Assembly (NCBI GenBank): GCA_018238965.1
Contig: JABCSI010000021.1
Span: forward strand, 1 to 23,592
Length of the DNA stretch: 23,592 nucleotides
Reading direction: 5' to 3'
Origin: Promethearchaeota archaeon
GTDB lineage: Archaea > Asgardarchaeota > Lokiarchaeia > Sigyniarchaeales > Promethearchaeaceae
In this document: piece by piece, positions 111 to 21,190 of the stretch
Position numbering within the stretch: the stretch's first letter is position 1
Layout: every line of letters begins with the position of its first letter
The notes under the pieces: generated by a model
The model's input: only the letters and a program-made list of their open reading frames with translations
Databases searched by the model: none
Told to the model about the DNA's origin: nothing
Position numbers and translations under genes: made by a program

Positions 111-1379
111 ATGTCAAAAATTGAACCCGTAGATATTTCATTTTTCTCTCCATTCAATGAAGAAGCGTGTACTTTATGTGGTGAATGTTTTCATAGATGC
201 CCAATTATGGAATTACCTTTAAAGGAATCCATTGAAGAGATGAAACGGCTCATTGCTGGAAAGCCAACCAAAAAAGTTTTGAAACTATGCCAAAGTTGTT
301 TTTCGTGTAATCTATACTGCCCTGAAAATGCCAATCCTGCAGGTCTTATTCAACAGCGTTGGAATGAACAATATAAAAAAGAGGGTCTCAGAAAAAGGGG
401 CAGATTTTACATGACATTTCATCCCCAATATCCAAATTTTCGTTCTTATGTTATGGAACGTCTCCCTCCTAAAACAAAAGATCTAGTCGCCCAATGGGCA
501 GATCTCTCGCCTCTAAAGGGTGATACCTTGACATACCCTGGTTGCAATATCATAACATATGCTGAGCTCACCCAAACAAGTATATTTAAAGACTTGGAGA
601 TAAGAGGGCGCTTGGAATACTGTTGCGGGGAAACATTGTTCCGGACAGGGTACAAAGATGAGTTATTCCAAGTAACCAAACGATTGAATAACTGGTTCAA
701 CACACTAAAGCCCAAACATCTACTGGTACTCTGTACAGCGGGGACGAATGTGTTTAAAAACGTATTACCTCATTATGGGCTAACGTATAAATTTGAATCT
801 ATCAAATCCTATATCCAATTTATCTGGGAACAAATAGAGGATGGGTCTATCGTAATAAAACATCAATTAGATATGACAGTCACCATCCAAGATTCTTGCT
901 ATTCAAAAATGTTTGGCGATGAATATATGGATTTACCCAGGAAAATACTGAGTGCTATTGGGGTTAAGGTCGTAGAAATTAAAGCCAGTCGTGAGGATAT
1001 GCGGTGTTGCGGGATTGGATGCGGATTTTCAATGGAAGCCGCTTATCATCCATTTCAGATACGGGCAGCAACGGTTAGAAACTTTAAGGAATTTCGAGAA
1101 ACGAAGGCAGATGCGATTTGTGTCTATTGTGCAGGTTGTTTGGCAACATTTACCATCGCCGAGAAGTTGTATATGCGAAATGTAAAGGTGTTTCATATCT
1201 TGGAACTTATACAGATGGCAATTGGAGAAAAACCCATGTCCAAAAAGGCTAAAAAGAAACGGGCCAACACCTTTTTCTGGGGAATCGTCAAAAAACAGTT
1301 TCCGATTACACTTTCTAAAAAGAAATTCAAGATTGCCGACCTTCCTGAAAATCCCCCTCCCTACGGAGATGCATATTGA
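111..1379 (+). CDS. HdrD/GlpC/LutA-like iron-sulfur protein (two ferredoxin-type [4Fe-4S] motifs plus two CCG cysteine-rich modules)
   Basis: 422-aa ORF. N-terminus has two CxxCxxCxxxCP motifs (CTLCGECFHRCP, CQSCFSCNLYCP). Two CCG-type modules follow (YPGC...EYCCGE...LCTAG and DSCYSK...RCCGIGCG...CVYCAGC). A TATA-like 'ctataaat' lies about 30 nt upstream of the ATG. Confidence 0.8.
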   Translation: MSKIEPVDISFFSPFNEEACTLCGECFHRCPIMELPLKESIEEMKRLIAGKPTKKVLKLCQSCFSCNLYCPENANPAGLIQQRWNEQYKKEGLRKRGRFYMTFHPQYPNFRSYVMERLPPKTKDLVAQWADLSPLKGDTLTYPGCNIITYAELTQTSIFKDLEIRGRLEYCCGETLFRTGYKDELFQVTKRLNNWFNTLKPKHLLVLCTAGTNVFKNVLPHYGLTYKFESIKSYIQFIWEQIEDGSIVIKHQLDMTVTIQDSCYSKMFGDEYMDLPRKILSAIGVKVVEIKASREDMRCCGIGCGFSMEAAYHPFQIRAATVRNFKEFRETKADAICVYCAGCLATFTIAEKLYMRNVKVFHILELIQMAIGEKPMSKKAKKKRANTFFWGIVKKQFPITLSKKKFKIADLPENPPPYGDAY

Positions 1380-2749
1380 TTATGGTAGGACCTAAACGAG
1401 TTCTAAGTTTTAGGGAGGATCTTTGCACAGTTTGTGGAGAATGTTTCCATCAATGTCAGGTGATGCATTTACCCCTGGATGTCGCAAAAAAGGAAATGCA
1501 AAAATTAATTGATGGAGTCCAAACCGATTATGTTCTTTCTAATTGTAATACTTGCTTGGCATGCAATTTATCATGTCCTCAACAGGCTAATCCCTATCAG
1601 TTGATTTTGGAAAGGTGGAACGATAAATATAAAAATAGTGGCGCACCTCCCATTTATACATATGTTTGTCCAACCGAAGACGATAACATGTGGCAAATTC
1701 TTAATATTTTCCTCTCAAATCAAGAACAAAGGTGGATATATCGATGGATGCATACGGTTCCTAAACCCGATGATAATGTTCTACTAATTGGGAATTTTAC
1801 GCATCTGTTCCCCTTTATAATTGGAGGGAGTGCCCTATTGGATCATTTTACCCCTCTGGATCGTTTAGATCAATGGGAAGGTGGCGCGTATTTATATCAA
1901 GGAGGATACATGGATGTTGTTCAAAAGATTGCTCGGCGAACCAAGAAAGATTTCGACGGGTGGGGAGTGAAGAATGTTGTCACCCTTTTGGATGCGGTCA
2001 GTTATTTCTGTAATGAAATTCATCCAAGAGAAATGGGTGTAACCCATGATCAAAATTTTACCAATTTTAATACCTGGCTTTTACATAAACTCGATAAGGG
2101 CGAAATTCAATTACCAAATCAACTAGATCTAACTGTAACATTGCATGATAATTGTTATTCCAAAGCATTAGGTGATGTATTATGGAATCCGCCTCGACAA
2201 ATTTTGGAAAAATGTGGTTGTAAAATCATAGAAATGAAACACATCAAGAAGGAATCATTGTGCTGCGGGTTTGGGGCGGGCGCATCATGGGTAAAAAACG
2301 TTTCCATTCCTTTTGATATGATCTACGAATCTTCCAAAAAAATCAAGGAAGCTGAAGAAACCGGGGCGAAAGCTCTCGTTTCGTATTGCGGAGGGTGTGT
2401 TTATCTGCTCTGGGCAACCAGGGAACTACTCCGAAGCAAAATAGATATTTATCATATCGTGGAAGTTGTTCGAATGTCCATGGGTGAGAAATTAGAATAT
2501 CCATCCGTTCACGTTGCCCGGGCGTGGGACATTATTACGCTTTTCACCTATTCGCTCATCCTTTCTCTTGTGAGACGCAACTTCTTTATTTCAAAAATTA
2601 CATATGATAAATCTATGAGTACCTATCAGCCGAAACGATATGGACTTGTAAGAGTTATTCGATATCTATTTAATATTCCAATCATAAGATATGCCTACTC
2701 GAAAATCTTTCAGTTCCTAATTCCCTTTATGAAAACACGTAAGTTCTAA
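1376..2749 (+). CDS. HdrD-like iron-sulfur protein paralog with a degenerate first CCG module and a hydrophobic C-terminal tail
   Basis: 457-aa ORF. The TTG at 1376 overlaps the upstream TGA (TTGA); an alternative ATG lies at 1382. Ferredoxin motifs are CTVCGECFHQC and CNTCLACNLSCP. Only the second CCG module is intact (DNCYSK...LCCGFGAG...SYCGGC). The region aligned to the first CCG of the upstream paralog reads IGNFTH...WEGGAY, with no Cys. The C-terminal ~90 aa are hydrophobic/basic. Confidence 0.75.
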   Translation: MIMVGPKRVLSFREDLCTVCGECFHQCQVMHLPLDVAKKEMQKLIDGVQTDYVLSNCNTCLACNLSCPQQANPYQLILERWNDKYKNSGAPPIYTYVCPTEDDNMWQILNIFLSNQEQRWIYRWMHTVPKPDDNVLLIGNFTHLFPFIIGGSALLDHFTPLDRLDQWEGGAYLYQGGYMDVVQKIARRTKKDFDGWGVKNVVTLLDAVSYFCNEIHPREMGVTHDQNFTNFNTWLLHKLDKGEIQLPNQLDLTVTLHDNCYSKALGDVLWNPPRQILEKCGCKIIEMKHIKKESLCCGFGAGASWVKNVSIPFDMIYESSKKIKEAEETGAKALVSYCGGCVYLLWATRELLRSKIDIYHIVEVVRMSMGEKLEYPSVHVARAWDIITLFTYSLILSLVRRNFFISKITYDKSMSTYQPKRYGLVRVIRYLFNIPIIRYAYSKIFQFLIPFMKTRKF

Positions 2750-6604: not shown

Positions 6605-7498
6605 ATGGAAATTCGAATTTTTGAAGATATTACGGAATTTTATGATTTAGTTTCGCCATTTCTGATGCAAAATGAAGCGAAAAATAATCTAATGCTCGCA
6701 TTACTTAATGGATTGCGTGGTAATCCTCTAAAATATGGTAACCTTCCTATTTTAATTGCTTTTCTCGATAATGATAGTGATAGAGATAATGAAAAAGAGA
6801 GTGATACTAAGAATGTTGTATTTGCGGGAATGCGCACGCCTCCCCATAATCAAATCCTTGCCTTTACCGAGAATCTTGCATATGTGGAGATGCTCGCTTC
6901 ATTTATTTATGAACAGAATCAAGATATTCCGGGAGTGTTGGGTTTCAAAGAAGGTGCCAAAAAATTCGCTCAAAAATGGGAAGAATTGACAAAAAGCCCT
7001 TTCCATCTTGATATGCATGAGAGAATCTATGAACTCTTGGAAGTAAATCCAGAAACTCTCGGAAACCACGAATTTCGGCAAGTAACAATGTCTGAACTTG
7101 ATTTAATTGTGAAATGGAGTCGAGCGATGCAATTGGAAGCTGTGGGGAGAAAATTGGATGAAGACGATGAAACTATGAAAGCAGAACTTCTAAAAAATGA
7201 TGTTTGGAAGACATTTTACGTTCTTACTGAGGACAATGGCGATGGATTGTTAACTATGGCAAAAAAATCGGGGACGACGCCCACCGGACAAATCGTTAAT
7301 TATGTTTATACTCCGCCCGAATTAAGACGGAATGGGTACGCCACTGAATGTGTGGCAAAATTAAGTCAGTTGATATTAGACGAGGGAAAACTACGATGTT
7401 TACTGTTCACTGATTTGGACAATCCTACCTCTAATAAAATTTATCAAAACATTGGATATGTGCCGGTTGTTGATATCGACGTTTATAAATTCGATTAG
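6605..7498 (+). CDS. GNAT-family N-acetyltransferase (about 300-aa form)
   Basis: 297-aa ORF. The C-terminal half has the acetyl-CoA motif 'VYTPPELRRNGYATECVAKL' (R-x-x-G-x-A type) and the terminal 'NPTSNKIYQNIGY'. An oligo-T tract and an A/T box lie upstream. Confidence 0.75.
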   Translation: MEIRIFEDITEFYDLVSPFLMQNEAKNNLMLALLNGLRGNPLKYGNLPILIAFLDNDSDRDNEKESDTKNVVFAGMRTPPHNQILAFTENLAYVEMLASFIYEQNQDIPGVLGFKEGAKKFAQKWEELTKSPFHLDMHERIYELLEVNPETLGNHEFRQVTMSELDLIVKWSRAMQLEAVGRKLDEDDETMKAELLKNDVWKTFYVLTEDNGDGLLTMAKKSGTTPTGQIVNYVYTPPELRRNGYATECVAKLSQLILDEGKLRCLLFTDLDNPTSNKIYQNIGYVPVVDIDVYKFD

Positions 7499-7546
7499 AT
7501 GAAGAAGATTATCAAAAAAATCAACTCTCAATCCAATATTTTTCTT

Positions 7547-8293
7547 TTATTTTTCCCGGATAATAAACAGCAGGCTATAGAGATGTAATATGTAGGAACC
7601 TGAGAGGAGCCATTCCCATAACGGAAGTAAGGGATTGAACCAAAATAAATCCCAAAATACGTATATCCAATACATTGAGAATGCAGTGAGGAAACCCAGC
7701 ATGATAAGATCGGTAATTAGATACAACATAACGATTTGCCAGATCTTTGGCCATCCCCGCTTGTCCTTATAACTTTTGATGAATATATACATATTGAAAG
7801 AGAACCCAACAAACGATAAAAAGAAGGCTATTAAAGCAAATACATAATGTATCCATCCGGTATCTTCCGAAAAAATGCCCACTCCAAAAATTCCGATACA
7901 AGATAGAATTAGAATCGATGTACTGACGATTGAAGTGATCCGGGCGATTGGTCGGAATTTTCGATATAGGAATAATACATAAGGAATGAGAAATATTCCA
8001 GCAAAACACATACCAATGCTCCAAATAATGTGGCCATCGGAATTCTTCAACCGGTTTCCCAAGCTACTCACACTGCGTCTGAGAAATGAATAAGTAGTTG
8101 GAAATGCAAGAATGGCATAAATATTTGTGGCTATAAGTATGATGATGATAATGCTCATTGAAATGGCATATGTTTTTTTAGGAGATCGACCAGAAAGAAA
8201 TTTAAAAATTCCACCTATACACTCTCGGAAGCGATCTGAGCGAGTTGAGTGTGTTGAGCGAGTTTGCTTCTCCATTTGTAAATCTTCATCCAC
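7547..8293 (-). CDS. Integral membrane protein, DUF998-like, paralog B
   Basis: 248-aa ORF with multiple TM segments. It shares 'TYSFLRRSVSSLG' and 'LPLWEWLLS' with paralog A. It is convergent with the GNAT gene. Confidence 0.6.
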   Translation of the reverse strand: MDEDLQMEKQTRSTHSTRSDRFRECIGGIFKFLSGRSPKKTYAISMSIIIIILIATNIYAILAFPTTYSFLRRSVSSLGNRLKNSDGHIIWSIGMCFAGIFLIPYVLFLYRKFRPIARITSIVSTSILILSCIGIFGVGIFSEDTGWIHYVFALIAFFLSFVGFSFNMYIFIKSYKDKRGWPKIWQIVMLYLITDLIMLGFLTAFSMYWIYVFWDLFWFNPLLPLWEWLLSGSYILHLYSLLFIIREK

Positions 8294-8325
8294 CGATAAT
8301 CACGCAACAATACCCGTTTTATTTG

Positions 8326-8823
8326 TTATGCGGATAATTTCTTTGGAATCGAGTTGGGATCGAGCTGACCAGAAGTACTTTCTAGACTAATTTCCTTCTG
8401 TTTATTCAGAATATTCATTAACATGTCAATGCCATCACCAATGGAATTAAATTCCTCCGCAAAATCGTCTTGTTTTATGCCTACTAGGCAATCTACTTCA
8501 ATATAGAGTTTTTGGCTATGTTGGGAGAAGGTTACTTCGGGGAGGTCGTAGTTTAATTCCAGAGAAATTCCAAATATCGCTAGAAGATTATCATCTGCAA
8601 AATCAGCTAGATTCATAACCATGCATTTCACATGAATCCACTTCGTAAGGTTATACAAAATAACGTCAAAATCAAGTTTATTACATCGATAAGTGCAAAT
8701 TATAGCAGGAAATATCTCGCCTGATGGTTCTCCTCCTATATCCTTGAATTCAAAAGGTACCCCCATCTCTTTTAAGTGCTCACTGATCAATCCTAAATTA
8801 TTCCTTTCGTCCAGATATGGCAT
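8326..8823 (-). CDS. Hypothetical cytoplasmic protein, YbjN-like (T3SS-chaperone-like fold) by pattern
   Basis: 165-aa acidic ORF. Its alternating strand/helix pattern (ISEHLKEMGVPFEF...FDVILYN..WIHVKCMV...LLAIFGISLELNYDLP...KLYIEVDCLVG...FAEEFNSIGDGIDMLMNIL) resembles YbjN-family proteins. There is no catalytic motif. Confidence 0.35.
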   Translation of the reverse strand: MPYLDERNNLGLISEHLKEMGVPFEFKDIGGEPSGEIFPAIICTYRCNKLDFDVILYNLTKWIHVKCMVMNLADFADDNLLAIFGISLELNYDLPEVTFSQHSQKLYIEVDCLVGIKQDDFAEEFNSIGDGIDMLMNILNKQKEISLESTSGQLDPNSIPKKLSA

Positions 8824-8923: not shown

Positions 8924-9565
8924 ATGAAAGATGTTCATAAGTATCTCATCATTCACAGAGATAGTGGACTTTGCATTTTCGAGCAAACTTTTCAAGAATT
9001 TCCCAACCAATTTGATTCCAGTATACTCTCTGGTTATTTATTCGCTGTATTGACCATATCACAAGAGTTAACTGATGAGAATATTGAGTATATTCGCTTA
9101 AAAAATCTCAAGATCTCCTACAATTTATCCTTAAAATTTATTATGATTCTGATCACATCCAATGATTTGAATAACAACTACGTACAAGAGAAATTAACAA
9201 ATTTGCAAGAAATTTTCAATCGAAAATATTCCCAATTATTTCAAAAAGAATTTTCGGGGGACGTGGCGCCTTTCCAATCATTTGCGATTGATGTAGAGCA
9301 AAATTTACAAAGGGAGACCCAATATTTTCACTATGTGGATAAACGTTCAAACCAGTTGGAACAGCATTTTGATTCTTCAAAACTAAAATGGAAGGATTTT
9401 CACGCAATATTACTCGATAAAGCAGGAGTAGAAGGACAATGGTCAAAGAAAGTTCACTGCAAATTGGATAAAGTTACAGAAATTGATATCGCCCATTCGA
9501 GATTAAATTTAAAAGATCAGGATGATAAATCTCAAAAAACTTCCAAAAAACGAAATTGGGTATAA
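8924..9565 (+). CDS. Hypothetical protein with N-terminal longin-like domain and charged helical C-terminus
   Basis: 213-aa ORF. The first ~110 aa show a beta-beta-alpha-beta-beta-beta-alpha pattern typical of longin/SNARE-like regulatory folds: YLIIHRDSGLCIFEQTF / SILSGYLFAVLTISQEL / IEYIRLKNLKISYNL / KFIMILITS / VQEKLTNLQEIFNRKY. The call rests on secondary-structure pattern only. Confidence 0.4.
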   Translation: MKDVHKYLIIHRDSGLCIFEQTFQEFPNQFDSSILSGYLFAVLTISQELTDENIEYIRLKNLKISYNLSLKFIMILITSNDLNNNYVQEKLTNLQEIFNRKYSQLFQKEFSGDVAPFQSFAIDVEQNLQRETQYFHYVDKRSNQLEQHFDSSKLKWKDFHAILLDKAGVEGQWSKKVHCKLDKVTEIDIAHSRLNLKDQDDKSQKTSKKRNWV

Positions 9566-9632: not shown

Positions 9633-11924
9633 TTATTCAATTCGATATTCGAACGATTTGGCTAACTTTTTGTAAAGGGGTATGAAATCTTGAAATGAAT
9701 TGATTATATGAAATTGAATATAGTCAAGAAATTCTTCTGGGATAACTGATTGTAAAAGAGTTCCTCCCAAATCTAAAATTTTCATCCGGATATTTCCCTG
9801 TTTGAAGGAAGGGTGCAGGTGTTCATGAAAATCCGCAAAATCGTTCGTAGAACCATCTGTAATAAAAACTATAGAAATCGGGCGATTAGGATCTTCTGCG
9901 TGTATGTAGTCTATCAACTCATTACAATGGATAAGTGAATCTTTAACATTGGTAGATTGGCCACTGATCTCAATTGCATTATGCATCAGGGAAAGGACAT
10001 ATGATTTTAGAATCCCCGAACTCGGAATTGTCGAATCAATCCATGGGTCATTGGCCACAGTCGAAATTAAATGGGTTTTATCCGCAAATGTAAATAAGGA
10101 TGTTCGTTCCCCAATTTTTCGGGATAATTTTTCTAAGATATAAAGGAGGATGAAGAAGGTCGCCACGGTATGTCTCCGAGCATAGATTTCTGGCTTGAAT
10201 TTTAGGAAAGGTGATGGAATATTCAGTTGTTTTAAAAATACTTCCATCTTCTTAAATTCAAAATACTCTTTATCAATCCAAACGTCTTGGGAATTCATCG
10301 ATCGACTAATATCAAGCAGAAAAATCGTATCAAAGATTTCCAATTCCTCAAATTCGATCTCAATCTGGGTCGTTGGTGTCAAATTTCCTATTTCTTGCGG
10401 TCCCAAAGCGGGTTTACAGGATTTAAAAAAGAATTCTGCCTCAAAATCTGGATGTTTAATGGAGATACCTGGATAAATGAAATATTTCATGAAATGGATC
10501 CGGATTACCTCTATTCGACTTTTTATAGTTGAGGCAAGTTTCTCGTGGTTTCCCACATAATCAATGGGAATTTTGGCAAAAACTCTGAATTTTTCGAGGT
10601 TTAGAACTAATTTCTTACGTTTTTGAATAACTAATAAATCCGATTGTCCCAATTGATTATTGATAAGATTTGGATCAATATGGAATTCGTCATCTGGGAT
10701 TTCGTGCGACAATTGGATCTTTGCATACACTGTGAAAGATGAACCCGGTCGTAAAATCGCCGCAATATCCCCTTTGGCAAACCCTAATGCAGTTGCATTC
10801 CGATAATTCAATATTATCCTTCCTTGAATTTCTTCCTTAGGAATGGGTCTCAGTGTGATCTCTTTCACATTAATGATGGGTGGTTCCATGGAATAAATAA
10901 TAATTCGATGGTCGGGTTTTTTAGCGATATCTGATTCAAAAGCAGTCTCTAAATCCATTACAAGGGTATCGTCATCCATTTCTTCGAGTAATACCATGGC
11001 GATCCCATCTCCTCGGGTAATGGGATCTTCCCAAGCAACAAAAGCACCAGGGAAAACATGAAGTTTTTGGGCAAAATTGGGACTGATTACAACACAGCCG
11101 TCCAAATTGTGATTGGAAAGTTTAAAATGTGCAATGTGGGAATCTGGCTTAATTTCAACCAATTCGTAAATATCAATGCTATCGTGGTACTCCGAATCAT
11201 CGAATTCTTCTACAGGAAGTGGTATCGAATCCCTACCATCTGCTGCATCATCTGTTGTCTCCACTAATATGTCCTCGTATTCCGAGGCAATTTCATTAAA
11301 ATCAGGTTTATTTCCGGGGGTCTGCTTGTCTGCCCCTTCGACGATATCGGGTTCAGGTACGAGATCGAAATCATCTGTTATTTCTATTTTTTCAGTTAGT
11401 TCTATATCTTCCGTAATTTCTATATTCTCTGTAATCTCTACATTATCCGTAATTTCTACATTCTTCGAAATTTCAATATCTTCTGTATTGTCTTGTTTAT
11501 CCATGGGATTTTGCTTTATTATTACGGTTTTAAATAAATCTTCATCCTCCGGAGTAGGTATTGGCGCTTTTGCATGGAGAAACTCTCCCAAGAGCTGCGA
11601 TTGACTTTTCAATGAATTTTCATTCAGTTTATATTTCTTATAACCTTCGGAGGGACTCAAAAATTTCGCTCCATTTTCCACGATCACGCCACTACTTATA
11701 GGGAAAGGCATTGACTCAAATAAAATCGGTGTTGCAATTGTTCCTTCCGGTATTTCGGGGTTAATTTTCATCCTAACCGTGAAAAAATGCTTATTTTTTT
11801 TGCTTCCAGCCAAAACTCGGATTATACCACCCTCGGGAAGACCGATTTTGTGAGCGTCAAGATCATTCATTTCGGTCCCGGGAAATTGCTCAAGAATAAA
11901 GGTTGGTTGTACTTGAATCCGCAT
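9633..11924 (-). CDS. Multidomain protein: three cradle-loop/double-psi-barrel-like repeats, acidic hexapeptide tandem repeat, C-terminal vWA domain with complete MIDAS
   Basis: 763-aa ORF. There are three copies of a barrel-type motif (h-x-h-x-P/x-x-x-A-x-x-L/h-G-h-x-x-G-x-h-x-h). They are 'EMNDLDAHKIGLPEGGIIRVLAG' (aa 18-40), 'VVISPNFAQKLHVFPGAFVAWED' (aa 278-300) and 'IILNYRNATALGFAKGDIAAILR' (aa 370-392). Residues ~148-184 are (N/D)(V/I)EIT(E/D) repeats. The vWA motifs are 'FLLDISRSM' (DxSxS), 'SGQSTNVKDSL' (Thr) and 'SIVFITDGSTND' (Asp). Confidence 0.7.
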   Translation of the reverse strand: MRIQVQPTFILEQFPGTEMNDLDAHKIGLPEGGIIRVLAGSKKNKHFFTVRMKINPEIPEGTIATPILFESMPFPISSGVIVENGAKFLSPSEGYKKYKLNENSLKSQSQLLGEFLHAKAPIPTPEDEDLFKTVIIKQNPMDKQDNTEDIEISKNVEITDNVEITENIEITEDIELTEKIEITDDFDLVPEPDIVEGADKQTPGNKPDFNEIASEYEDILVETTDDAADGRDSIPLPVEEFDDSEYHDSIDIYELVEIKPDSHIAHFKLSNHNLDGCVVISPNFAQKLHVFPGAFVAWEDPITRGDGIAMVLLEEMDDDTLVMDLETAFESDIAKKPDHRIIIYSMEPPIINVKEITLRPIPKEEIQGRIILNYRNATALGFAKGDIAAILRPGSSFTVYAKIQLSHEIPDDEFHIDPNLINNQLGQSDLLVIQKRKKLVLNLEKFRVFAKIPIDYVGNHEKLASTIKSRIEVIRIHFMKYFIYPGISIKHPDFEAEFFFKSCKPALGPQEIGNLTPTTQIEIEFEELEIFDTIFLLDISRSMNSQDVWIDKEYFEFKKMEVFLKQLNIPSPFLKFKPEIYARRHTVATFFILLYILEKLSRKIGERTSLFTFADKTHLISTVANDPWIDSTIPSSGILKSYVLSLMHNAIEISGQSTNVKDSLIHCNELIDYIHAEDPNRPISIVFITDGSTNDFADFHEHLHPSFKQGNIRMKILDLGGTLLQSVIPEEFLDYIQFHIINSFQDFIPLYKKLAKSFEYRIE
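9690..10328 (-). other. vWA domain (MIDAS DxSxS...T...D) of the 763-aa protein
   Basis: Covers aa ~533-745. D538-x-S540-x-S542, T658 in GQSTN and D690 in ITDG are present in canonical order and spacing. Confidence 0.7.
11374..11487 (-). repeat. In-frame 18-bp tandem repeat (6 full units plus a partial) encoding (N/D)(V/I)EIT(E/D)
   Basis: Plus-strand units are tctgttatttctattttt / tcagttagttctatatct / tccgtaatttctatattc / tctgtaatctctacatta / tccgtaatttctacattc / ttcgaaatttcaatatct. They translate on the minus strand to DIEISKNVEITDNVEITENIEITEDIELTEKIEITDD. Confidence 0.9.
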
Positions 11925-12019: not shown

Positions 12020-12406
12020 TTAAATTTTTGGATAAGTTTCACTAATTTTACCTGCATAAAATCTGAAAACTGCCACTGTTTTGCCAAGATCACGGATGGT
12101 CCGGGATGCCCCAATAAGGAAAAAGCGTCCGGCCGCAGAAATGACCATAAAACTCTTCTTTCCCCGCAGCACAACCTCAATTAACTTATTAAAGCCGATC
12201 TTTGTGATTGAATCGCTACCACTCTGGAGTAATACTGCTCCCATGGCGCAGAGACTATCAGGATCTACTTGGTAGCCGGGAATTGCCGAGAATGCTAGCC
12301 TCATACCTTCCTTTGAAACGAGCGCTAATGCTTCCAATTCAGTATTTTGTGTGATATTACTCAAATAGGCACTAAGATTCGCAGCATCTTGTTCTTTTAA
12401 TGACAT
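12020..12406 (-). CDS. Roadblock/LC7 (MglB-like) domain protein
   Basis: 128-aa ORF of single-domain size. The pattern 'LEALALVSKEGMRLAFSAIPG..VDPDSLCAMGAVLLQSG...IGFNKLIEVVLRGKKSFMVISAAGRFFLIGASR..DLGK' fits the Robl/LC7 alpha-beta-beta-alpha-beta-beta-beta consensus. A GAGG lies 8 nt upstream of the ATG. Confidence 0.75.
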   Translation of the reverse strand: MSLKEQDAANLSAYLSNITQNTELEALALVSKEGMRLAFSAIPGYQVDPDSLCAMGAVLLQSGSDSITKIGFNKLIEVVLRGKKSFMVISAAGRFFLIGASRTIRDLGKTVAVFRFYAGKISETYPKI

Positions 12407-12462: not shown

Positions 12463-13224
12463 TTAGATTTTTCTTAGGAATTCAATTGCAATTACTACTT
12501 GATTTTTTACCAAGACCCGGGGAACATATCCCTCAGCAAGGAATAAACCTTCTGGGAGAGTTGAGATGGGTTCCAAAATCCGTTCAACGGAAACTTTACC
12601 CAAGAATGGCTGCTTTTTCTCAGTGACAGAATATGATTTATCTCCCACTATCACCATTTCACGTTCGTATCCAGCCGGAACTTCATCTTCATCCAAAAGA
12701 TGGATGATATTATCAAGATTTTCTCGACTTTGGTAATTTTCTGGGGATGATTGGGAAGTTGTCGAATCTCCACCACCTGTATATAACGGTCCTGTCTGTT
12801 CAATGGAGCTATTATACTTGGTGTTCATCAATTGTGCATAGGAAGGCGCATTTTTCATAGGACCCGAAGATGATGGATCTATATCGAATTTAACATCCTC
12901 TCCATCATCTATCACCTCTTTCGCAAATCCATCGGTGGGCATATTTTCGATAGCCTCAAGGAATTCGGGGTCTTTATTGGTATCCTCCTCTTCCAGTGAA
13001 ATAGATCGGTAATTCAGCCCAACTTGGCTTCTAACAGTTTGAGATGTCCGAGCTCCGTTGAATTTCGATCGTACTTTGGCGTTTTGCCCGATCCATAAAT
13101 AGACGACTCGATTGGTATCATCTGATAAAATATAACACTCATTGCTGTCCAATAATTTCTTGATTGGAACTTGATCCTTTAACTCGTGCGCTTCGCCATT
13201 GCCCTTTACAATAAACACTTGCAT
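12463..13224 (-). CDS. Gelsolin/villin-type domain protein with unassigned C-terminal region (1-domain gelsolin + X architecture)
   Basis: 253-aa ORF. The N-terminal ~98 aa are 'MQVFIVKGNGEAHELKD..PIKKLLDSNECYILSDDTNRVVYLWIGQNAKVRSKFNGARTSQTVRSQVG..YRSISLEEEDTNKDPEFLEAI'. They follow the gelsolin-repeat consensus: strand; L/F-x-s-x-d-CYIL; iY-x-W-x-G-x-x-a; long helix; E-x-x-E-x-x-F. A low-complexity S/T/G/N linker and an ~80-aa C-terminal beta-rich region follow. Confidence 0.65.
   Translation of the reverse strand: MQVFIVKGNGEAHELKDQVPIKKLLDSNECYILSDDTNRVVYLWIGQNAKVRSKFNGARTSQTVRSQVGLNYRSISLEEEDTNKDPEFLEAIENMPTDGFAKEVIDDGEDVKFDIDPSSSGPMKNAPSYAQLMNTKYNSSIEQTGPLYTGGGDSTTSQSSPENYQSRENLDNIIHLLDEDEVPAGYEREMVIVGDKSYSVTEKKQPFLGKVSVERILEPISTLPEGLFLAEGYVPRVLVKNQVVIAIEFLRKI
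12931..13224 (-). other. Gelsolin-like domain (aa 1 to about 98)
   Basis: See the motif alignment described for the parent CDS. Confidence 0.6.
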
Positions 13225-15410: not shown

Positions 15411-16160
15411 ATGGACTCTTCAACTCCACCACCATTACGGAAAACCTTCGATGTGTCAATTCAAGCCCATCGGGGATTTAACGCCCAATATCCAGAGAAT
15501 ACACTACTATCTTTTGAAAAAGCAATAGAAGCTAAGGCGGATTATATTGAATTGGATGTTCGTGCCTCATCGGATAATCATGTTGTCGTTATGCATGATC
15601 TTGACACAGAGCGAGTAGCTGTAGATTCTCAACCCCTAATCATCGCGGATTCGACTTTGGAACAGATAAAGAGTATACAATTACCCGAAAATCAAAAAGT
15701 CCCTACCTTACGGGAAGTTTGTAAACTATGCCAAGGGAAAATAGGTTTGAACATTGAAATCACGCAATTGGGAATAACTTCTCTTGTCAATGATATCGTT
15801 CATGAATTCGGTATGGAAAAAGATGTAATGATTTCGAGTTTTCTTCATGGAGAATTGGGACTCATGCACAAATTAAATCCTTTGCTTATGTGTGCAACAC
15901 TTGAAGCCAAAGGCGGTCGTGTTAAAGGTTACATCAAGAAATCTCTCAAAGTCAATGCTTGTGGTTTAAATCCTCACCACACTGATTTTTCTCCTTCATT
16001 ATGCACACAGGCCCATGAAAATGGTTTATATTTCCATCCATGGACTGTCAATGATCCTAAGATCTGGGATGAGATGGTAGCTGCAGGAGTGGATGGAATC
16101 ATTACCGATAACCCCCAAGCCCTATATGATTACCTTCAAGATAAGGCTGTAAATTCGTAG
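15411..16160 (+). CDS. Glycerophosphodiester phosphodiesterase (GDPD family), copy 1
   Basis: 249-aa ORF with 'HRGFNAQYPENTLLSFEKAIEAKADYIELDVRASSDNHVVVMHD', matching the canonical HRG...PENT...E-x-D-V...HD motifs. The later metal-ligand motif reads 'LNIEIT'. 'HPWTVND' is near the C-terminus. Confidence 0.85.
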   Translation: MDSSTPPPLRKTFDVSIQAHRGFNAQYPENTLLSFEKAIEAKADYIELDVRASSDNHVVVMHDLDTERVAVDSQPLIIADSTLEQIKSIQLPENQKVPTLREVCKLCQGKIGLNIEITQLGITSLVNDIVHEFGMEKDVMISSFLHGELGLMHKLNPLLMCATLEAKGGRVKGYIKKSLKVNACGLNPHHTDFSPSLCTQAHENGLYFHPWTVNDPKIWDEMVAAGVDGIITDNPQALYDYLQDKAVNS

Positions 16161-16206: not shown

Positions 16207-16956
16207 ATGAAACAAACATTTGGGGTTTCTATTCATGCTCACCGTGGATTTAGCGCCAAATATCCTGAGAATACATTACTTGCCTTTGAAAAAGCAATAG
16301 AAGCCAAGGCGGATTACATTGAATTGGACGTGCATGCCTCATCGGATCACCATGTTGTTGTTATTCACGATCGGACAACAATACGAGTATCATCCCAAAA
16401 ACTTAATGTTGAAAAATCGACCTTGGAGCAAATTCAAGGCATTAAATTGAAGGGAGATCAAAAAATACCCACGTTACGGGAAGTTTGCAGACTGTGCAAA
16501 GGGAGAATCGGCATAAATATAGAAATTAAGCAAAAAGGTATAACTTCTCTTATCAATGATATCGTTCATGAATTTGGAATGGAAGAAGAGGTGATGATTT
16601 CGAGTTTTCTTCATGCGGAATTGCAAATCATGCATAAATTAAATCCATCGCTCACGATTGCTGCCCTCGAACCCAATGGCGAGAGTATTATCAAGAACAT
16701 TCTTAACGCTTTTCGTAAAGGAAAATTTATTGATAACGCTCTCTCAATCGAAGCCCAAGGGATTAATCCCCATCATCTATTCATTACGCCTTCATTGTTG
16801 TCCCGTGCTCATAAGAATGCTCTATCTATCAATCCATGGACCATTGATGATCCAAAAATGTGGGATAAGTTAGTGGCCATTGGAGTGGATAGCATCATAA
16901 CCAATAATCCGGAAGCACTCTACAAATATCTTAAAGAAAGAGCCGCAAATTCTTAG
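16207..16956 (+). CDS. Glycerophosphodiester phosphodiesterase (GDPD family), copy 2 (tandem paralog)
   Basis: 249-aa ORF with 'HRGFSAKYPENTLLAFEKAIEAKADYIELDVHASSDHHVVVIHD', 'INIEIK' and 'NPWTIDD'. By eye, roughly two-thirds of aligned residues are identical to copy 1. Confidence 0.85.
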   Translation: MKQTFGVSIHAHRGFSAKYPENTLLAFEKAIEAKADYIELDVHASSDHHVVVIHDRTTIRVSSQKLNVEKSTLEQIQGIKLKGDQKIPTLREVCRLCKGRIGINIEIKQKGITSLINDIVHEFGMEEEVMISSFLHAELQIMHKLNPSLTIAALEPNGESIIKNILNAFRKGKFIDNALSIEAQGINPHHLFITPSLLSRAHKNALSINPWTIDDPKMWDKLVAIGVDSIITNNPEALYKYLKERAANS

Positions 16957-18010: not shown

Positions 18011-18409
18011 TCAGGCCATACTTCTGGAAGCAATGATATTAATTTTCGTATCCAGAATATTTTCGATTAAAATATCCCCCACCTTGATTGGGGAACGGCA
18101 CTTGTTTTTGTTGATTATTTTAATGGCCTGGAAAATCAAATCTTTTGGAATTGGTTCTTTACTCCGCACAGGGATTACGGGAAAGGGGGCATCTTCTATT
18201 CGCATTGTCGTAATCACCATTCTGACGGGATGCAAATACTCATTTTCACCGTAGGCTAATCCCCTTGCACATTGGTTTCCGGTGATCTGAACTTTATCCT
18301 CAGAATCCTTCCATACAGTAAGTCTGCAGGAATTTGGGCATACAACACAGATTATTTCACGTTCATCCTTCCGTTCTTGGGATTTTGGTGATAGTGGCGA
18401 AGTTTCCAT
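18011..18409 (-). CDS. DUF1667 domain protein (small subunit of the GlpA-like/NOX-like dehydrogenase complex)
   Basis: The 132-aa ORF has 'ICVVCPNSCRLTV...ITGNQCARGLAYGENEYLHPVRMVITTMRI...IPVRSKEPIPKD...IKVGDILIENILDT..NIIASRS'. This matches the DUF1667 signature (CxxCPxxC...GNxCxRG...E...P.R). The ATG lies 1 nt after the upstream TAG, with GGAGGA upstream. Confidence 0.8.
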   Translation of the reverse strand: METSPLSPKSQERKDEREIICVVCPNSCRLTVWKDSEDKVQITGNQCARGLAYGENEYLHPVRMVITTMRIEDAPFPVIPVRSKEPIPKDLIFQAIKIINKNKCRSPIKVGDILIENILDTKINIIASRSMA

Positions 18410-18410
18410 C

Positions 18411-19712
18411 CTAGTTCTCCTCCATCATGGTTCTTTCAATAATATTAACCAATTGTTCTTTTTCAATCACATTCACGATTATCTCGCCCTCCACATCTTC
18501 TGGTTTTAATTTGGCTCGGATGCTTATCATCTCTGAGGGTAGCACAAACTTATGGCGACGAGTATAAATTACCTTCCCGTTTGAAACCAATTGGGTGCGG
18601 ATATTCGACCTTGGATTTTTCACACGATAGGTAAATTTCACTATTTTTTCAGTTTGCAAACCATCAATTCGCTCGGGAACCACATATCCAACATTTTCAC
18701 CCGGTAAGATAGTAATTTTTTGTTCGGGGGAAGGTGTGGGAATATCCAGTTTACCTTGTGCGTATAAAGCCGCATTCTCACCTGCATGTTGGGCTTCTTC
18801 GGTAACGAAATCAACTAAATCATGGACTTGTAATACATTTCCACACGCAAATATTCCAGGAAGGGTAGTTTGAAGGTATTCGTTGACATCTGGTCCTCCG
18901 TTGCGTGCAATGGAAATCCCCGCCTGAACAGAGATTTCATTCTCCGGGATCAATCCGACGCTAAACAGAATAGTATCGCAGTCGAAATATTTTTCAGTCC
19001 CGGGGATCGGGCGCCATTTTTCATCGATTTGGGCAATGGTGGCACCCTCAACACGTTCTTTTCCACGAATATCGATTATCGTGTGGCGAAGATATAGGGG
19101 AATACCATAATCGTCTAGGCATTGAACCTGGTTACGTTTTAAACCACTGGGATACGGGAGAACTTCCGCTACCCCGAGGACTTTCATACCCTCTAGGGTG
19201 CACCTACGGGCCATAATCATGCCGATATCTCCACTTCCGAGGATTAGCACACGATGACCTGGCAGATAGCCCTCAATATTAATAAACCGCTGGGCTTGAC
19301 CCGCAGGAAATATCCCTGCAGGACGGGTTCCGGGTATATTTATTGCACCTCGGGTACGTTCCCTACATCCCATCGCCAAAATGATCGCTTTTGCTTGGAT
19401 ATGGACTATGCCCTGTTTTCCATTCATCACAACAACCTGATGGTCGGGTGTGATGGAAAGGGCTATGGAATTAAGCATTACGTGGATAGGTGAATCCTTC
19501 ACTAAATCAACAAAACGCTGTGCATATTCAGGACCGGTAAGTTCTTCCTTAAAATGTTTGAGACCAAAGCCATTGTGGATGCATTGTTGCAATATTCCAC
19601 CAAGTTCGTGATCCCGTTCGATTATAATCACTTCTGAGCCGTTTTCCTGGGCTGCCAATCCGGCCGCCAGTCCCGCGGGACCGCCACCGATAACCACAAT
19701 ATCAGTTTCCAT
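18411..19712 (-). CDS. FAD/NAD(P)-binding pyridine-nucleotide-disulfide-type oxidoreductase (NOX-like subunit)
   Basis: 433-aa ORF with 'IVVIGGGPAGLAAGLAA' and a second dinucleotide fold 'RVLILGSGDIGMIMA'. 'FACGNV' is near the C-terminal end of the FAD domain. The start overlaps the upstream stop (TAATG). Confidence 0.8.
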   Translation of the reverse strand: METDIVVIGGGPAGLAAGLAAQENGSEVIIIERDHELGGILQQCIHNGFGLKHFKEELTGPEYAQRFVDLVKDSPIHVMLNSIALSITPDHQVVVMNGKQGIVHIQAKAIILAMGCRERTRGAINIPGTRPAGIFPAGQAQRFINIEGYLPGHRVLILGSGDIGMIMARRCTLEGMKVLGVAEVLPYPSGLKRNQVQCLDDYGIPLYLRHTIIDIRGKERVEGATIAQIDEKWRPIPGTEKYFDCDTILFSVGLIPENEISVQAGISIARNGGPDVNEYLQTTLPGIFACGNVLQVHDLVDFVTEEAQHAGENAALYAQGKLDIPTPSPEQKITILPGENVGYVVPERIDGLQTEKIVKFTYRVKNPRSNIRTQLVSNGKVIYTRRHKFVLPSEMISIRAKLKPEDVEGEIIVNVIEKEQLVNIIERTMMEEN

Positions 19713-21190
19713 TAGAGGTGATCTCCATTGAATATCTCTGAACCGAGATTTTTGGTTCGGTTGAAGACCAAATAGGATTTTCCGCCGGTCTTGGTTACTT
19801 TTTCATAAAGCATATCCCGTTCCCGAGAAATAATTTTCATTATCTTGGCTTGACAGAATCCACCTTGACAGCGCCCCATACCCGGTCTTAACCTTCGCTT
19901 CACCATATCTGTGTTAGTACAAGGGATCTGACGGTGGCAAGCCTCGACGATTTCTGCTTCGGACACCATTTCACACCTGCACACGATATTACCCCATTGG
20001 GGGTTTTCGGCGATTTTGGATTTCAATTCTTCTTCATTCAGGTTCTCCATCCGAATCTGGGAGGATAGCGTAGGAATATACTGAGTCCTTTTCGAAAAAG
20101 TAAATCCGCAGTCTTTCTGTAAAATTTCCTCAACCCGTTCCGCAATGGCAAGGCTCGAAGTTAATCCCGGTGAATCAATTCCGGCTGCGTGAATAAACTG
20201 TCCATCCTGTTTAGAGGGTTCAATAATGAAATCATGGCGTAAAGTGGATGCCCGAAGGCCTGCAAAATTTGTGATATGTTTCCGCAGGGGCAAATCAACT
20301 AATTTTGACCCTCCCGTGAGGATTTCGTTCAATCCCTTTATGGATGTGTTGGTGCCTTCCTTAGAATCTACTTCATTTGCATTCGGTCCTACGTAAAAAT
20401 TGCCGTGCATCGTCGGACCGACCACAATTCCTTTGGAAACCACCGTGGGTGTCGGAAATAGGATTTTCTGAAGGTTTAAAGAATGCTTATCAAACATGAT
20501 ATACTGCCCTCTTCTTGGAATAATGTTAAAACTTTCATCGCCGATCATTTTGGCAATTTTGTCAGAATATAGACCCGCTGCGTTGATAATGGTTTTTACT
20601 TGGATTTTTTCTCCTTCACTGGAATGGATGGTGAAAATCTCATCGTTTTTCTTGATAAACGCCACCTCGAACTGCAGTTTTAATTCAACTCCATTTAGAA
20701 GGGCATGTTCTGCCAAAGCAATAGTTAAATCCCATGGGACCAGAATCCCCGCTTCTGGAAAATGTAAGACTGCGATAACGGATTCCTTTAGAAGCGGTTC
20801 GAGTTTCTTAATTTTTCCCCGATCATCAATAAATTCGGCCGGTGCATTCCGTTCTTGACTGTTTTTAAATTCTCCTTCCAATGTTTTCAATTCATTCTTA
20901 GTTGTGGCACAAAACAAAGCCCCGGTGCGTTTAAACGGAACATCCAATTGTGGACAGAGCTCATTAAACAAGGCACTTCCCCGTAGACAAAGAGTTTCCT
21001 TTAATGTCCCTTTAGAAGTGAAATATCCCTGATGTATAATCCCGGAGTTTGCTTTTGAGGTTCCCATCGCAACATCCGCCTCTTTATCCAGTAAAATGGT
21101 TTTTAACTCATATTTTGCAAGCCGTTGTGCAATAGCGCTTCCAACAACGCCCGCTCCAATGATAGCAATATCATAAATATTATTATTCAT
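19712..21190 (-). CDS. FAD-dependent glycerol-3-phosphate dehydrogenase-like oxidoreductase (GlpA/LhgO-type DAO fold) with BFD-like [2Fe-2S] domain
   Basis: 492-aa ORF with 'YDIAIIGAGVVGSAIAQRLA' (GxGxxG) and a DAO-family body. The C-terminal 'CRCEMVSEAEIVEA....MVKRRLRPGMGRCQGGFC' is the BFD-like 2Fe-2S motif. It is the first gene of a tightly coupled three-gene operon with the NOX-like and DUF1667 genes. Confidence 0.75.
   Translation of the reverse strand: MNNNIYDIAIIGAGVVGSAIAQRLAKYELKTILLDKEADVAMGTSKANSGIIHQGYFTSKGTLKETLCLRGSALFNELCPQLDVPFKRTGALFCATTKNELKTLEGEFKNSQERNAPAEFIDDRGKIKKLEPLLKESVIAVLHFPEAGILVPWDLTIALAEHALLNGVELKLQFEVAFIKKNDEIFTIHSSEGEKIQVKTIINAAGLYSDKIAKMIGDESFNIIPRRGQYIMFDKHSLNLQKILFPTPTVVSKGIVVGPTMHGNFYVGPNANEVDSKEGTNTSIKGLNEILTGGSKLVDLPLRKHITNFAGLRASTLRHDFIIEPSKQDGQFIHAAGIDSPGLTSSLAIAERVEEILQKDCGFTFSKRTQYIPTLSSQIRMENLNEEELKSKIAENPQWGNIVCRCEMVSEAEIVEACHRQIPCTNTDMVKRRLRPGMGRCQGGFCQAKIMKIISRERDMLYEKVTKTGGKSYLVFNRTKNLGSEIFNGDHL

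Follow-up and report, generated by a model that had tools for sequence, protein, structure and literature searches.

A Lokiarchaeial protein with three double-psi beta-barrels and a von Willebrand factor A domain with a complete metal-site motif, encoded beside Roadblock and gelsolin-domain proteins

The subject of this study is a gene on contig JABCSI010000021.1 of the Promethearchaeota (Lokiarchaeia) assembly GCA_018238965.1, of which we analysed positions 1 to 23,592 of the forward strand; this whole 23.6-kb stretch, with a G+C content of ~37-40%, is called the window below. The target gene is an open reading frame (ORF) with an ATG start at 9633..11924 on the minus strand; it lies downstream of genes for a gelsolin-domain protein and a Roadblock/LC7 protein, and encodes a protein of 763 aa. 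This is laid out as three double-psi beta-barrels (aa 1-97, 255-347 and 348-438), a second beta lobe (aa 439-530) and a von Willebrand factor A (vWA) domain (aa 531-763), with a helical segment and an acidic linker separating the first barrel from the second. No 19-residue window of the protein exceeds 1.24 on the Kyte-Doolittle scale, and neither an N-terminal hydrophobic segment, a signal peptide nor a membrane segment was found in it; it is thus predicted to be soluble and cytoplasmic. An extracellular adhesin, which would need a signal peptide or membrane segment, was considered and rejected. Searched alone against Pfam, the target gives two matches, both sub-threshold and both to fold classes named in the original prediction: Molydop_binding at aa 17-71 (E=2.4e-3) and VWA_2 at aa 533-691 (E=0.018). 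NCBIfam and PADLOC returned no match for the target or its neighbours, so nothing links it to a known defence system.

Relatives of the protein were found at two depths. A word-indexed search gave five homologues of 70-33% identity, and an exhaustive profile search of 1.84 billion representatives gave 80 family representatives (~80 clusters at 50% identity), which answers the question of whether the same domain order occurs in other archaea. Conservation and Pfam counts given below are taken over 66 aligned family members. The same 66-sequence alignment was used for the AlphaFold2 (AF2) model, since prediction from six close sequences alone gave an unusable model (predicted local distance difference test, pLDDT, of 43); the model from the larger alignment has a mean pLDDT of 84.5, with 527 residues at or above 90 and disorder confined to aa 130-234.

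The original prediction for this DNA had pointed to a motif recurring three times in the protein, and this was found as placed: at aa 18-40 (EMNDLDAHKIGLPEGGIIRVLAG), aa 278-300 (VVISPNFAQKLHVFPGAFVAWED) and aa 370-392 (IILNYRNATALGFAKGDIAAILR). In the AF2 model each instance of the motif covers strand 2, helix 1 and strand 3 of its barrel, and the three units (aa 3-84, 263-345 and 355-435) share the element order b-b-a-b-b-b-a-b, the second helix being missing in the third. Barrel 1 (11634..11924, minus strand; pLDDT ~85-95) is built from strands 3-11 and 17-19, helix 21-26, strands 34-40, 45-54 and 62-66, helix 67-71 and strand 80-84; barrel 2 (10884..11162, minus strand; pLDDT ~96) from strands 263-269 and 277-280, helix 282-288, strands 295-299, 306-313 and 320-323, helix 325-330 and strand 340-345. 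Barrel 3 lies at 10611..10883 (minus strand), is the first lobe of a Cdc48-N-like domain, and marks the point at which the core common to the whole family begins. Profile-profile alignment with hhalign matched barrel 1 to barrel 3 (E=5.9e-9, 65 columns) and barrel 2 to barrel 3 (E=1.2e-12, 76 columns), so that the recurrence of the barrel exceeds chance and the repeats are homologous. The possibility that these segments might not be barrels, or might be unrelated to one another, was examined, and the model shows three barrels and the profiles their homology.

Barrel 3 is followed by a beta-rich lobe with two helices (10335..10610, minus strand; pLDDT >90), whose elements are strand 440-451, helices 460-469 and 471-478, and strands 488-490, 497-504 and 512-525, and which is predicted to be equivalent to the Nc lobe of the Cdc48/p97 N domain. 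This region, aa 440-530, had been left open by the earlier assignment. Because the entire p97 N domain, both lobes included (5epp_A, 170 residues), superposes on the model with a template modelling (TM) score of 0.73 and a root-mean-square deviation of 3.9, barrel 3 and the second lobe together are predicted to be a single, complete Cdc48-N-type domain. Barrel 3 also matches the Cdc48/VAT barrel (E=5.7e-8) and the IML1_N barrel of DEPDC5 (E=1.6e-7) in hhalign. The second lobe by itself gives no significant match to Nc lobes (E=0.04) and no match to Pfam CDC48_2, although an alignment across both lobes covers 136 columns of VAT N. Among the relatives, Pfam CDC48_N is matched by 11 of 66 (best 3.8e-7) at the position equivalent to barrel 3, and Molydop_binding by 14. 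These matches, with the predicted topology, the profile alignments and the p97 superposition, bear out the expectation that the N-terminal segments belong to the double-psi, Cdc48-N or molybdopterin-binding class of domains.

Directly after barrel 1, a helical segment (aa 98-129; 11538..11633, minus strand) carries an invariant LKSQxQ...E...K motif, of which L105, K106, S107, Q108, Q110, E114 and K119 are identical in all six orthologues; the model places helices at 102-105, 108-119 and 125-130. It leads into the acidic linker (aa 130-254; 11163..11537, minus strand), of which aa 130-234 are predicted to be disordered (pLDDT <50). Residues 130-234 carry a net charge of -24, and the longer stretch aa 98-254 one of -35; the linker aligns poorly between orthologues. 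The acidic EIT repeats noted earlier are here: a regular-expression search for xIEIT[ED] delimits six hexapeptides at aa 149-184 (DIEISK NVEITD NVEITE NIEITE DIELTE KIEITD; 11373..11480, minus strand), coded by an 18-bp tandem repeat that Tandem Repeats Finder places at 11377-11483 with 5.9 copies and 75% matches. All five homologues, even the 70%-identical P0001, have a gap at this block. It is therefore a recent, lineage-specific, in-frame expansion, lying in a spacer that is disordered and evolves fast, and does not represent a functional repeat kept by the family.

The vWA domain (9636..10334, minus strand; pLDDT >90) is modelled as alternating strands and helices over aa 532-756, so that the protein ends 8 residues past the last vWA helix. 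Pfam VWA matches 57 of the 66 relatives (best 2.1e-19), and the family profile matches solved vWA structures, including 4rck (E=3.8e-15), 8s05 (1.5e-14), 5a8j (2.2e-11) and integrin alpha-M (1.4e-3). Its metal ion-dependent adhesion site (MIDAS) is complete, with the DxSxS...T...D residues in order, as had been proposed, and near-invariant across the family. The first loop, D538-I-S540-R-S542 (10299..10313, minus strand), follows strand 532-538; D538 is retained in 66/66 relatives, and S540 and S542 are each serine in 64 and threonine in two. T658 (9951..9953, minus strand), just ahead of helix 660-677, is threonine in 62/66 and is a serine in P0003, and D690 (9855..9857, minus strand), in an ITDG motif at the end of strand 683-689, is aspartate in 64/66; the preceding T689 is threonine in 59/66. 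These are the canonical positions, the first closing strand 1, the next preceding helix 660-677 and the last closing strand 683-689, and from them we infer that the residues would assemble in space into a MIDAS. Both the fold and DxSxS...T...D are shared with canonical MIDAS vWA domains (integrin I domains, BatA/BatB-type proteins, the ArnB paralogue VWA2 of 5a8j, and TFIIH p34). Unlike these, the target family has an insert of ~40 residues after the first MIDAS loop (aa 543-583 in the target) and near-invariant residues of its own (M543, D547, R584 and K599), and the target itself is predicted to be cytoplasmic and carries N-terminal barrels.

We regard this anatomy as firmly established: three homologous double-psi barrels, of which one is predicted to be part of a full Cdc48-N-type domain, a spacer that is acidic and disordered, and a vWA domain with all the MIDAS residues. 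The pairing of Cdc48-type barrels with a vWA domain had not been recognised as a known combination; the pairing itself is confirmed, but it is not confined to this protein, being found throughout the archaeal family of ~80 clusters and also in the N-terminal domain (NTD) and SABA domain of eukaryotic DEPDC5/Iml1.

The conserved core, aa 346-763, defines an uncharacterised, mainly Asgard family. Most members are 410-440 aa long and match the profile only at ~350-750 (barrel 3, second lobe and vWA domain), and they are annotated as "VWA domain-containing" or hypothetical only. Named members come from the Loki, Hel, Sigyn, Thor, Heimdall and Odin lineages, from Korarchaeota and from Thermoplasmatota; the nearest named homologues are in Promethearchaeota (Lokiarchaeia) genomes, including that of Candidatus Harpocratesius repetitus, and a search for related loci with the six-sequence alignment found just two species-representative genomes, of which that organism is one. 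Barrel 2 is common to long forms in the Loki, Hel and Sigyn lineages, and a smaller set of members, P0006-P0011, also carries it, matching the profile from position ~236 on; barrel 1 is restricted to a narrow Lokiarchaeial orthogroup. Two further barrel copies have been added N-terminally in the lineage of the target, with the acidic disordered linker between them. On a Heimdallarchaeial contig (L003:3434-6212) two core-form paralogues, of 431 and 412 aa, stand in tandem. P0008, a member of 932 aa (E=2e-54 to the family profile; L010:147-8945), has PilO, secretin and T2SSE ATPase genes downstream of it, a context like that of the type IV pilus or type II secretion loci of bacteria, and so the family may extend beyond archaea.

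Among the subunits of GATOR1, a nutrient-signalling complex of eukaryotes, DEPDC5 is the largest. When the AF2 model was compared with the PDB by Foldseek, the top six matches were DEPDC5 chains (E=3.3e-10 to 1.2e-8, 454-486 columns, query-normalised TM 0.25-0.27), followed by p97 N-D1, Pex1/6 and NSF at TM 0.18-0.20 (0.18-0.19 for p97 N-D1). The higher TM for DEPDC5 suggests that, in the model, the N-type domain and the vWA domain superpose jointly on DEPDC5, and that on p97 essentially the N domain alone does so. A sequence search of the PDB with a six-sequence profile found no match. For profile comparison, DEPDC5 residues 1-386 (identical in sequence to the PDB entry) were expanded to a 24-sequence metazoan alignment, and the control profile was built from the VAT group, human p97 and yeast Cdc48, each verified against the PDB.

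In hhalign the archaeal core matched DEPDC5 1-386 with E=9.1e-7 over 164 columns, running collinearly into the first strand of the vWA/SABA domain, and barrel 3 with the second lobe matched the DEPDC5 NTD with E=4.5e-8 over 119 columns; reversed and column-shuffled profiles scored 7-13 in this last comparison, against 50 for the real one. The same segment matched the VAT/p97/Cdc48 N control with E=1.3e-7 over 136 columns, a control of limited diversity since the VAT N homologues found were 77-100% identical fragments only. DEPDC5 NTD and Cdc48 N match each other weakly (E=3e-4 to 7e-4, 65-66 columns), while the archaeal profile matches both equally, which makes the archaeal domain a central, bridging member of this superfamily. 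It also follows that the profile signal is not specific to DEPDC5, so that ancestry is suggested and not demonstrated by it. DEPDC5 is singled out by the three-part architecture that it shares with the target and by its rank among the structural matches. The vWA domain itself gave no significant match to SABA (E=0.058, 22 columns); the resemblance there is one of structure alone.

The likenesses to DEPDC5/Iml1 (Sea1 in yeast; GATOR1/SEACIT) are those of order and of overall shape: the NTD and SABA domain there, and the core of the target here, follow the sequence barrel, second beta lobe, vWA-type alpha/beta domain. Pfam labels DEPDC5 residues 5-89 "IML1 N-terminal double psi beta barrel". By eye, the vWA motifs of the two proteins are collinear (FLLDISRSM with FIQMSCEMW, STNvkdSL with QGNyleAINL, and FITDGS with VITPGV, target first). 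The metal site is degenerate in DEPDC5, however (Q-x-S-x-E, with G for T and P for D), while that of the target is complete; the inserts in the vWA and SABA domains lie at different positions; and the target adds two barrels and an acidic linker but stops at the vWA domain, where DEPDC5 runs on for ~1,200 residues through its SHEN, DEP and C-terminal (CTD) domains. None of these last three domains was found in the target, and no DEP match in the 66 relatives; nor did hmmscan match Pfam IML1 (PF12257, which covers the second lobe and SABA) or IML1_N (PF23013) in the target (to E 10) or in the family members scanned. The target is therefore not a member of the DEPDC5/Iml1 family. Similar comparisons have been drawn for the eukaryotic protein, of which the NTD has been likened to the N domain of Sec18/NSF and SABA to Sec23 (PMC8534245). 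An Asgard survey that sought GATOR1 components reports an NPRL2/3-like longin family and, in the part of the preprint available, no DEPDC5 homologue (bioRxiv 10.1101/2020.10.19.343400). A 2025 study of longin GTPase-activating-protein complexes treats Asgard longins, and DEPDC5 and Iml1 are absent from its main text. The literature searched on Asgard archaea together with DEPDC5, Iml1, GATOR or vWA held nothing on the target family and reported no prokaryotic counterpart of DEPDC5.

Two other families were compared with the target. With the Cdc48/p97/VAT N domain, found also in NSF and Pex1/6, the target is predicted to have the two-lobed fold in common, but its barrel is triplicated and its N-type domain is followed by a vWA domain in place of AAA+ (no Pfam AAA match in the target or the 66 relatives), and it is therefore not a Cdc48-family ATPase. 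Sec23 and Sec24 of COPII hold a zinc finger, trunk, beta-barrel, helical and gelsolin-like domain in one chain, which the target does not; no Sec23/24 Pfam family matched the target or the 66 relatives, and no Sec23/24 chain was among the top 50 Foldseek matches. A split Sec23-like protein, with a vWA domain on one chain and the gelsolin domain on a separate one, was also considered and rejected, both for lack of a Sec23 signal and because the neighbouring gelsolin is of the actin-binding type.

The two upstream neighbours are a Roadblock/LC7 protein of 128 aa (12020..12406, minus strand; Pfam Robl_LC7 E=4.5e-5, 23.5 bits against a cutoff of 23) and a gelsolin-domain protein of 253 aa (12463..13224, minus strand) with a single gelsolin domain at aa ~5-95 and a C-terminal extension; in a phmmer search of the PDB the latter matched Lokiarchaeota 2DGel first (7whg_G, E=3.1e-8) and then eukaryotic gelsolins. 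The gene order gelsolin, Roadblock, target is kept in the window and in related loci L001, L002/L013, L014 (Ca. Harpocratesius), L012 and L008. In these loci identity between orthologues is much higher for the neighbours (64-87% for the Roadblock and 37-72% for the gelsolin-domain protein) than for the target (24-39%). The cluster is kept in L012, where the target is only 24% identical, and in L008, where the outer flanking genes differ and the Roadblock gene is inverted; both cases point to something beyond inherited synteny. The Asgard gelsolins (2DGel, 1DGelX) and the Roadblock/MglB-type proteins are the families of the two neighbours and not of the target. No conserved cluster of gelsolin and Roadblock genes with a vWA protein is described in the literature searched, and to our knowledge neither Asgard family has been described as clustered with one. 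In yeast, Sea1 binds Npr2 via its SABA domain (PMC9646525), and a vWA protein encoded beside a Roadblock-fold protein may be seen as a thematic parallel to this, and no more. No longin or GTPase gene was recognised in the window.

The remainder of the window holds genes of other kinds. A convergent ORF at 8924-9565 (plus strand, 213 aa) could be assigned to no family and is conserved in L001 only (54% identity), being missing from the other orthologous loci; the impression, gained by eye at its N-terminus, of a longin/Roadblock fold (a small alpha/beta platform) proved unsupported. Tandem glycerophosphodiester phosphodiesterase paralogues of 249 aa each (15411-16160 and 16207-16956, plus strand) adjoin a cluster of three genes resembling GlpA, GlpB and GlpC (18011-21190, minus strand; DAO with BFD 2Fe-2S, Pyr_redox_2, DUF1667), which suggests a locus for glycerophosphodiester and glycerol-3-phosphate utilisation; phosphodiesterase and Glp-like genes also flank the target in L001 and L002. 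At the start of the window, tandem paralogues with 4Fe-4S dicluster and CCG cysteine-rich domains (HdrD/GlpC-like) lie at 111-1379 and 1376-2749 (plus strand), their ORFs overlapping by 4 bases.

Elsewhere in the family, the gene keeps other company. In Heimdall (L017, L003), Hel (L006/7) and Loki (L008, L011) loci it is linked to genes for a GCS2-type carboxylate-amine ligase (27.9 bits, above the Pfam cutoff) and an Amidohydro_2 protein (46 bits), at L017:8796-13246, L006:9120-13232, L008:1-4680, L003:2-1348 with 7171-8421, and L011:5527-7326. In L006, L011 and L017 an uncharacterised protein of 360-420 aa is encoded between the family gene and the ligase, so that family gene, intervening protein, ligase and amidohydrolase look like a conserved, undescribed four-gene system; L008 holds both this ligase-amidohydrolase set and the gelsolin-Roadblock pair. 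Two family members, P0075 (E=9.4e-6) and P0067 (E=3.1e-5), end in a ubiquitin domain. P0067 (565 aa; L015:2360-8698, and the same in L016) consists of CDC48_N, vWA and the C-terminal ubiquitin-like domain, and adjoins a eukaryote-like ubiquitin operon encoding ubiquitin (140 aa), an E1 (ThiF, 406 aa), an E2 (UQ_con, 161 aa) and a JAB protein (283 aa). Ligase, amidohydrolase and ubiquitin-system genes are all absent from the 23.6-kb window.

We propose, with a probability of roughly 55%, that the target is a cytosolic, metal-dependent protein-interaction scaffold or adaptor, whose likely partners are the adjacent Roadblock and gelsolin-domain proteins. Its MIDAS would hold Mg2+ or Mn2+, with a partner protein supplying the Asp or Glu that completes the coordination, or with the acidic linker of the target itself doing so reversibly, and the grooves of the barrels may bind peptides or ubiquitin-like folds, as in Cdc48-N-type domains; the target would thereby assemble a complex. 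The gelsolin-domain protein (actin-regulator type) and the Roadblock/LC7 protein (GTPase-platform type) would be its likeliest partners because their genes stay adjacent to it across related genomes. Several observations weigh against this proposal. The target's own Pfam scores fall under the gathering thresholds (16.1 bits for VWA_2 against a cutoff of 27), and T658 is replaced by methionine in the close homologue P0002. The six loci that hold the cluster belong without exception to Lokiarchaeia that are fairly closely related, and wider synteny is also kept among them, save in L008, and Roadblock genes are numerous in Asgard genomes, so that their adjacency is weaker evidence than it appears. 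Distant family members, moreover, have different neighbours (the GCS2-type ligase with amidohydrolase, the ubiquitin operon, and pilus-type ATPases), and the ancestral job of the family may therefore have had nothing to do with gelsolin or Roadblock.

Three other explanations were weighed. The family might be the direct prokaryotic ancestor of the DEPDC5/Iml1 NTD-SABA region and, with Roadblock/longin partners, form a primitive GATOR1-like scaffold regulating a Rag/Arf-type GTPase, in which the vWA domain would dock a platform-fold partner as SABA docks Npr2. This we consider doubtful. In its favour, DEPDC5 is the best PDB match and the sole one to span both the N domain and the vWA domain, the NTD profiles match at E=4.5e-8, and the DEPDC5 barrel scores higher against archaeal barrel 3 (37.8) than against the Cdc48 barrel (28.0). 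The conserved Roadblock gene adjoining the target and the binding of Npr2 by Sea1 SABA (PMC9646525) agree with such a descent, as does the occurrence of NPRL2-like longins in Asgard genomes for which, in the available part of that survey, no accompanying DEPDC5 homologue is reported (bioRxiv 10.1101/2020.10.19.343400). Set against these, the equal match of Cdc48/VAT N (E=1.3e-7, 136 columns) puts the signal at the level of the superfamily; the vWA domain reaches only E=0.058 against SABA and has its insert at another position; IML1 and IML1_N matches, SHEN, DEP and CTD are all wanting, the window yielded no recognisable gene for a GTPase or longin, and family members in other phyla have unrelated neighbours.

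Somewhat less probable again is that the target recognises a protein tag, ubiquitin-like modifiers or some other, as its receptor or adaptor, having Ufd1-like and Rpn10-like parts, or as a component of ligase/amidohydrolase tagging; the barrels would then read the tag and the vWA domain dock the machinery. Cdc48-N-type domains do bind ubiquitin-like folds, P0075 and P0067 end in a ubiquitin domain with P0067 beside the Ub, E1, E2 and JAB operon, and family genes in Heimdall, Hel and Loki head the operon with the GCS2-type ligase and Amidohydro_2 protein. The product of the ligase-amidohydrolase pair could just as well be a small molecule, however, the ubiquitin-system and ligase genes are not in the window, and the target has neither a ubiquitin-like domain nor a ubiquitin-binding domain detectable by Pfam. 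We think it very improbable that the target is a vWA regulator of the ArnB kind, or a vWA protein associated with pili or the archaellum that acts in the assembly or regulation of surface appendages. ArnB is reported to be a vWA partner of the FHA protein ArnA (PMC6509490), the family profile matches the Sulfolobus vWA structure 5a8j (VWA2, E=2.2e-11), and two distant members lie near T2SSE-type ATPases, one of them also near PilO and a secretin. Yet the matches to 5a8j and to 8s05 (a 387-aa 'Conserved protein') cover vWA positions only (profile 292-399), the target has no membrane segment, and no FHA, kinase, pilin or ATPase genes lie near it in any of the six orthologous loci. An ArnA/ArnB-type module needs an FHA/Zn-ribbon partner, and there is no FHA-domain gene in the window or the orthologous loci. 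The metal-dependent scaffold or adaptor with Roadblock and gelsolin-domain partners remains the reading that we prefer.

Considering what these proteins may mean for the origin of eukaryotic signalling complexes, it is conceivable, though in our view improbable, that the Asgard Cdc48N-vWA family is a prokaryotic precursor of DEPDC5/Iml1 NTD-SABA which has a working metal site and which, in Lokiarchaeia, was already paired with a Roadblock platform and an actin regulator. If this were true, a GATOR1-like scaffold would predate eukaryotes, linking small-GTPase-type signalling to the archaeal actin cytoskeleton. The family offers a concrete candidate source for the scaffold part of GATOR1, having the same order of barrel, lobe and vWA domain with the metal site intact, and it shows a possible route by which a metal-dependent vWA domain could have decayed into the metal-free SABA. 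Apart from any relationship to DEPDC5, it is an unannotated and widespread Asgard protein type, and its contexts, with gelsolin and Roadblock, with a GCS2-type ligase and amidohydrolase, and with a ubiquitin operon, each point to eukaryote-like cell biology.

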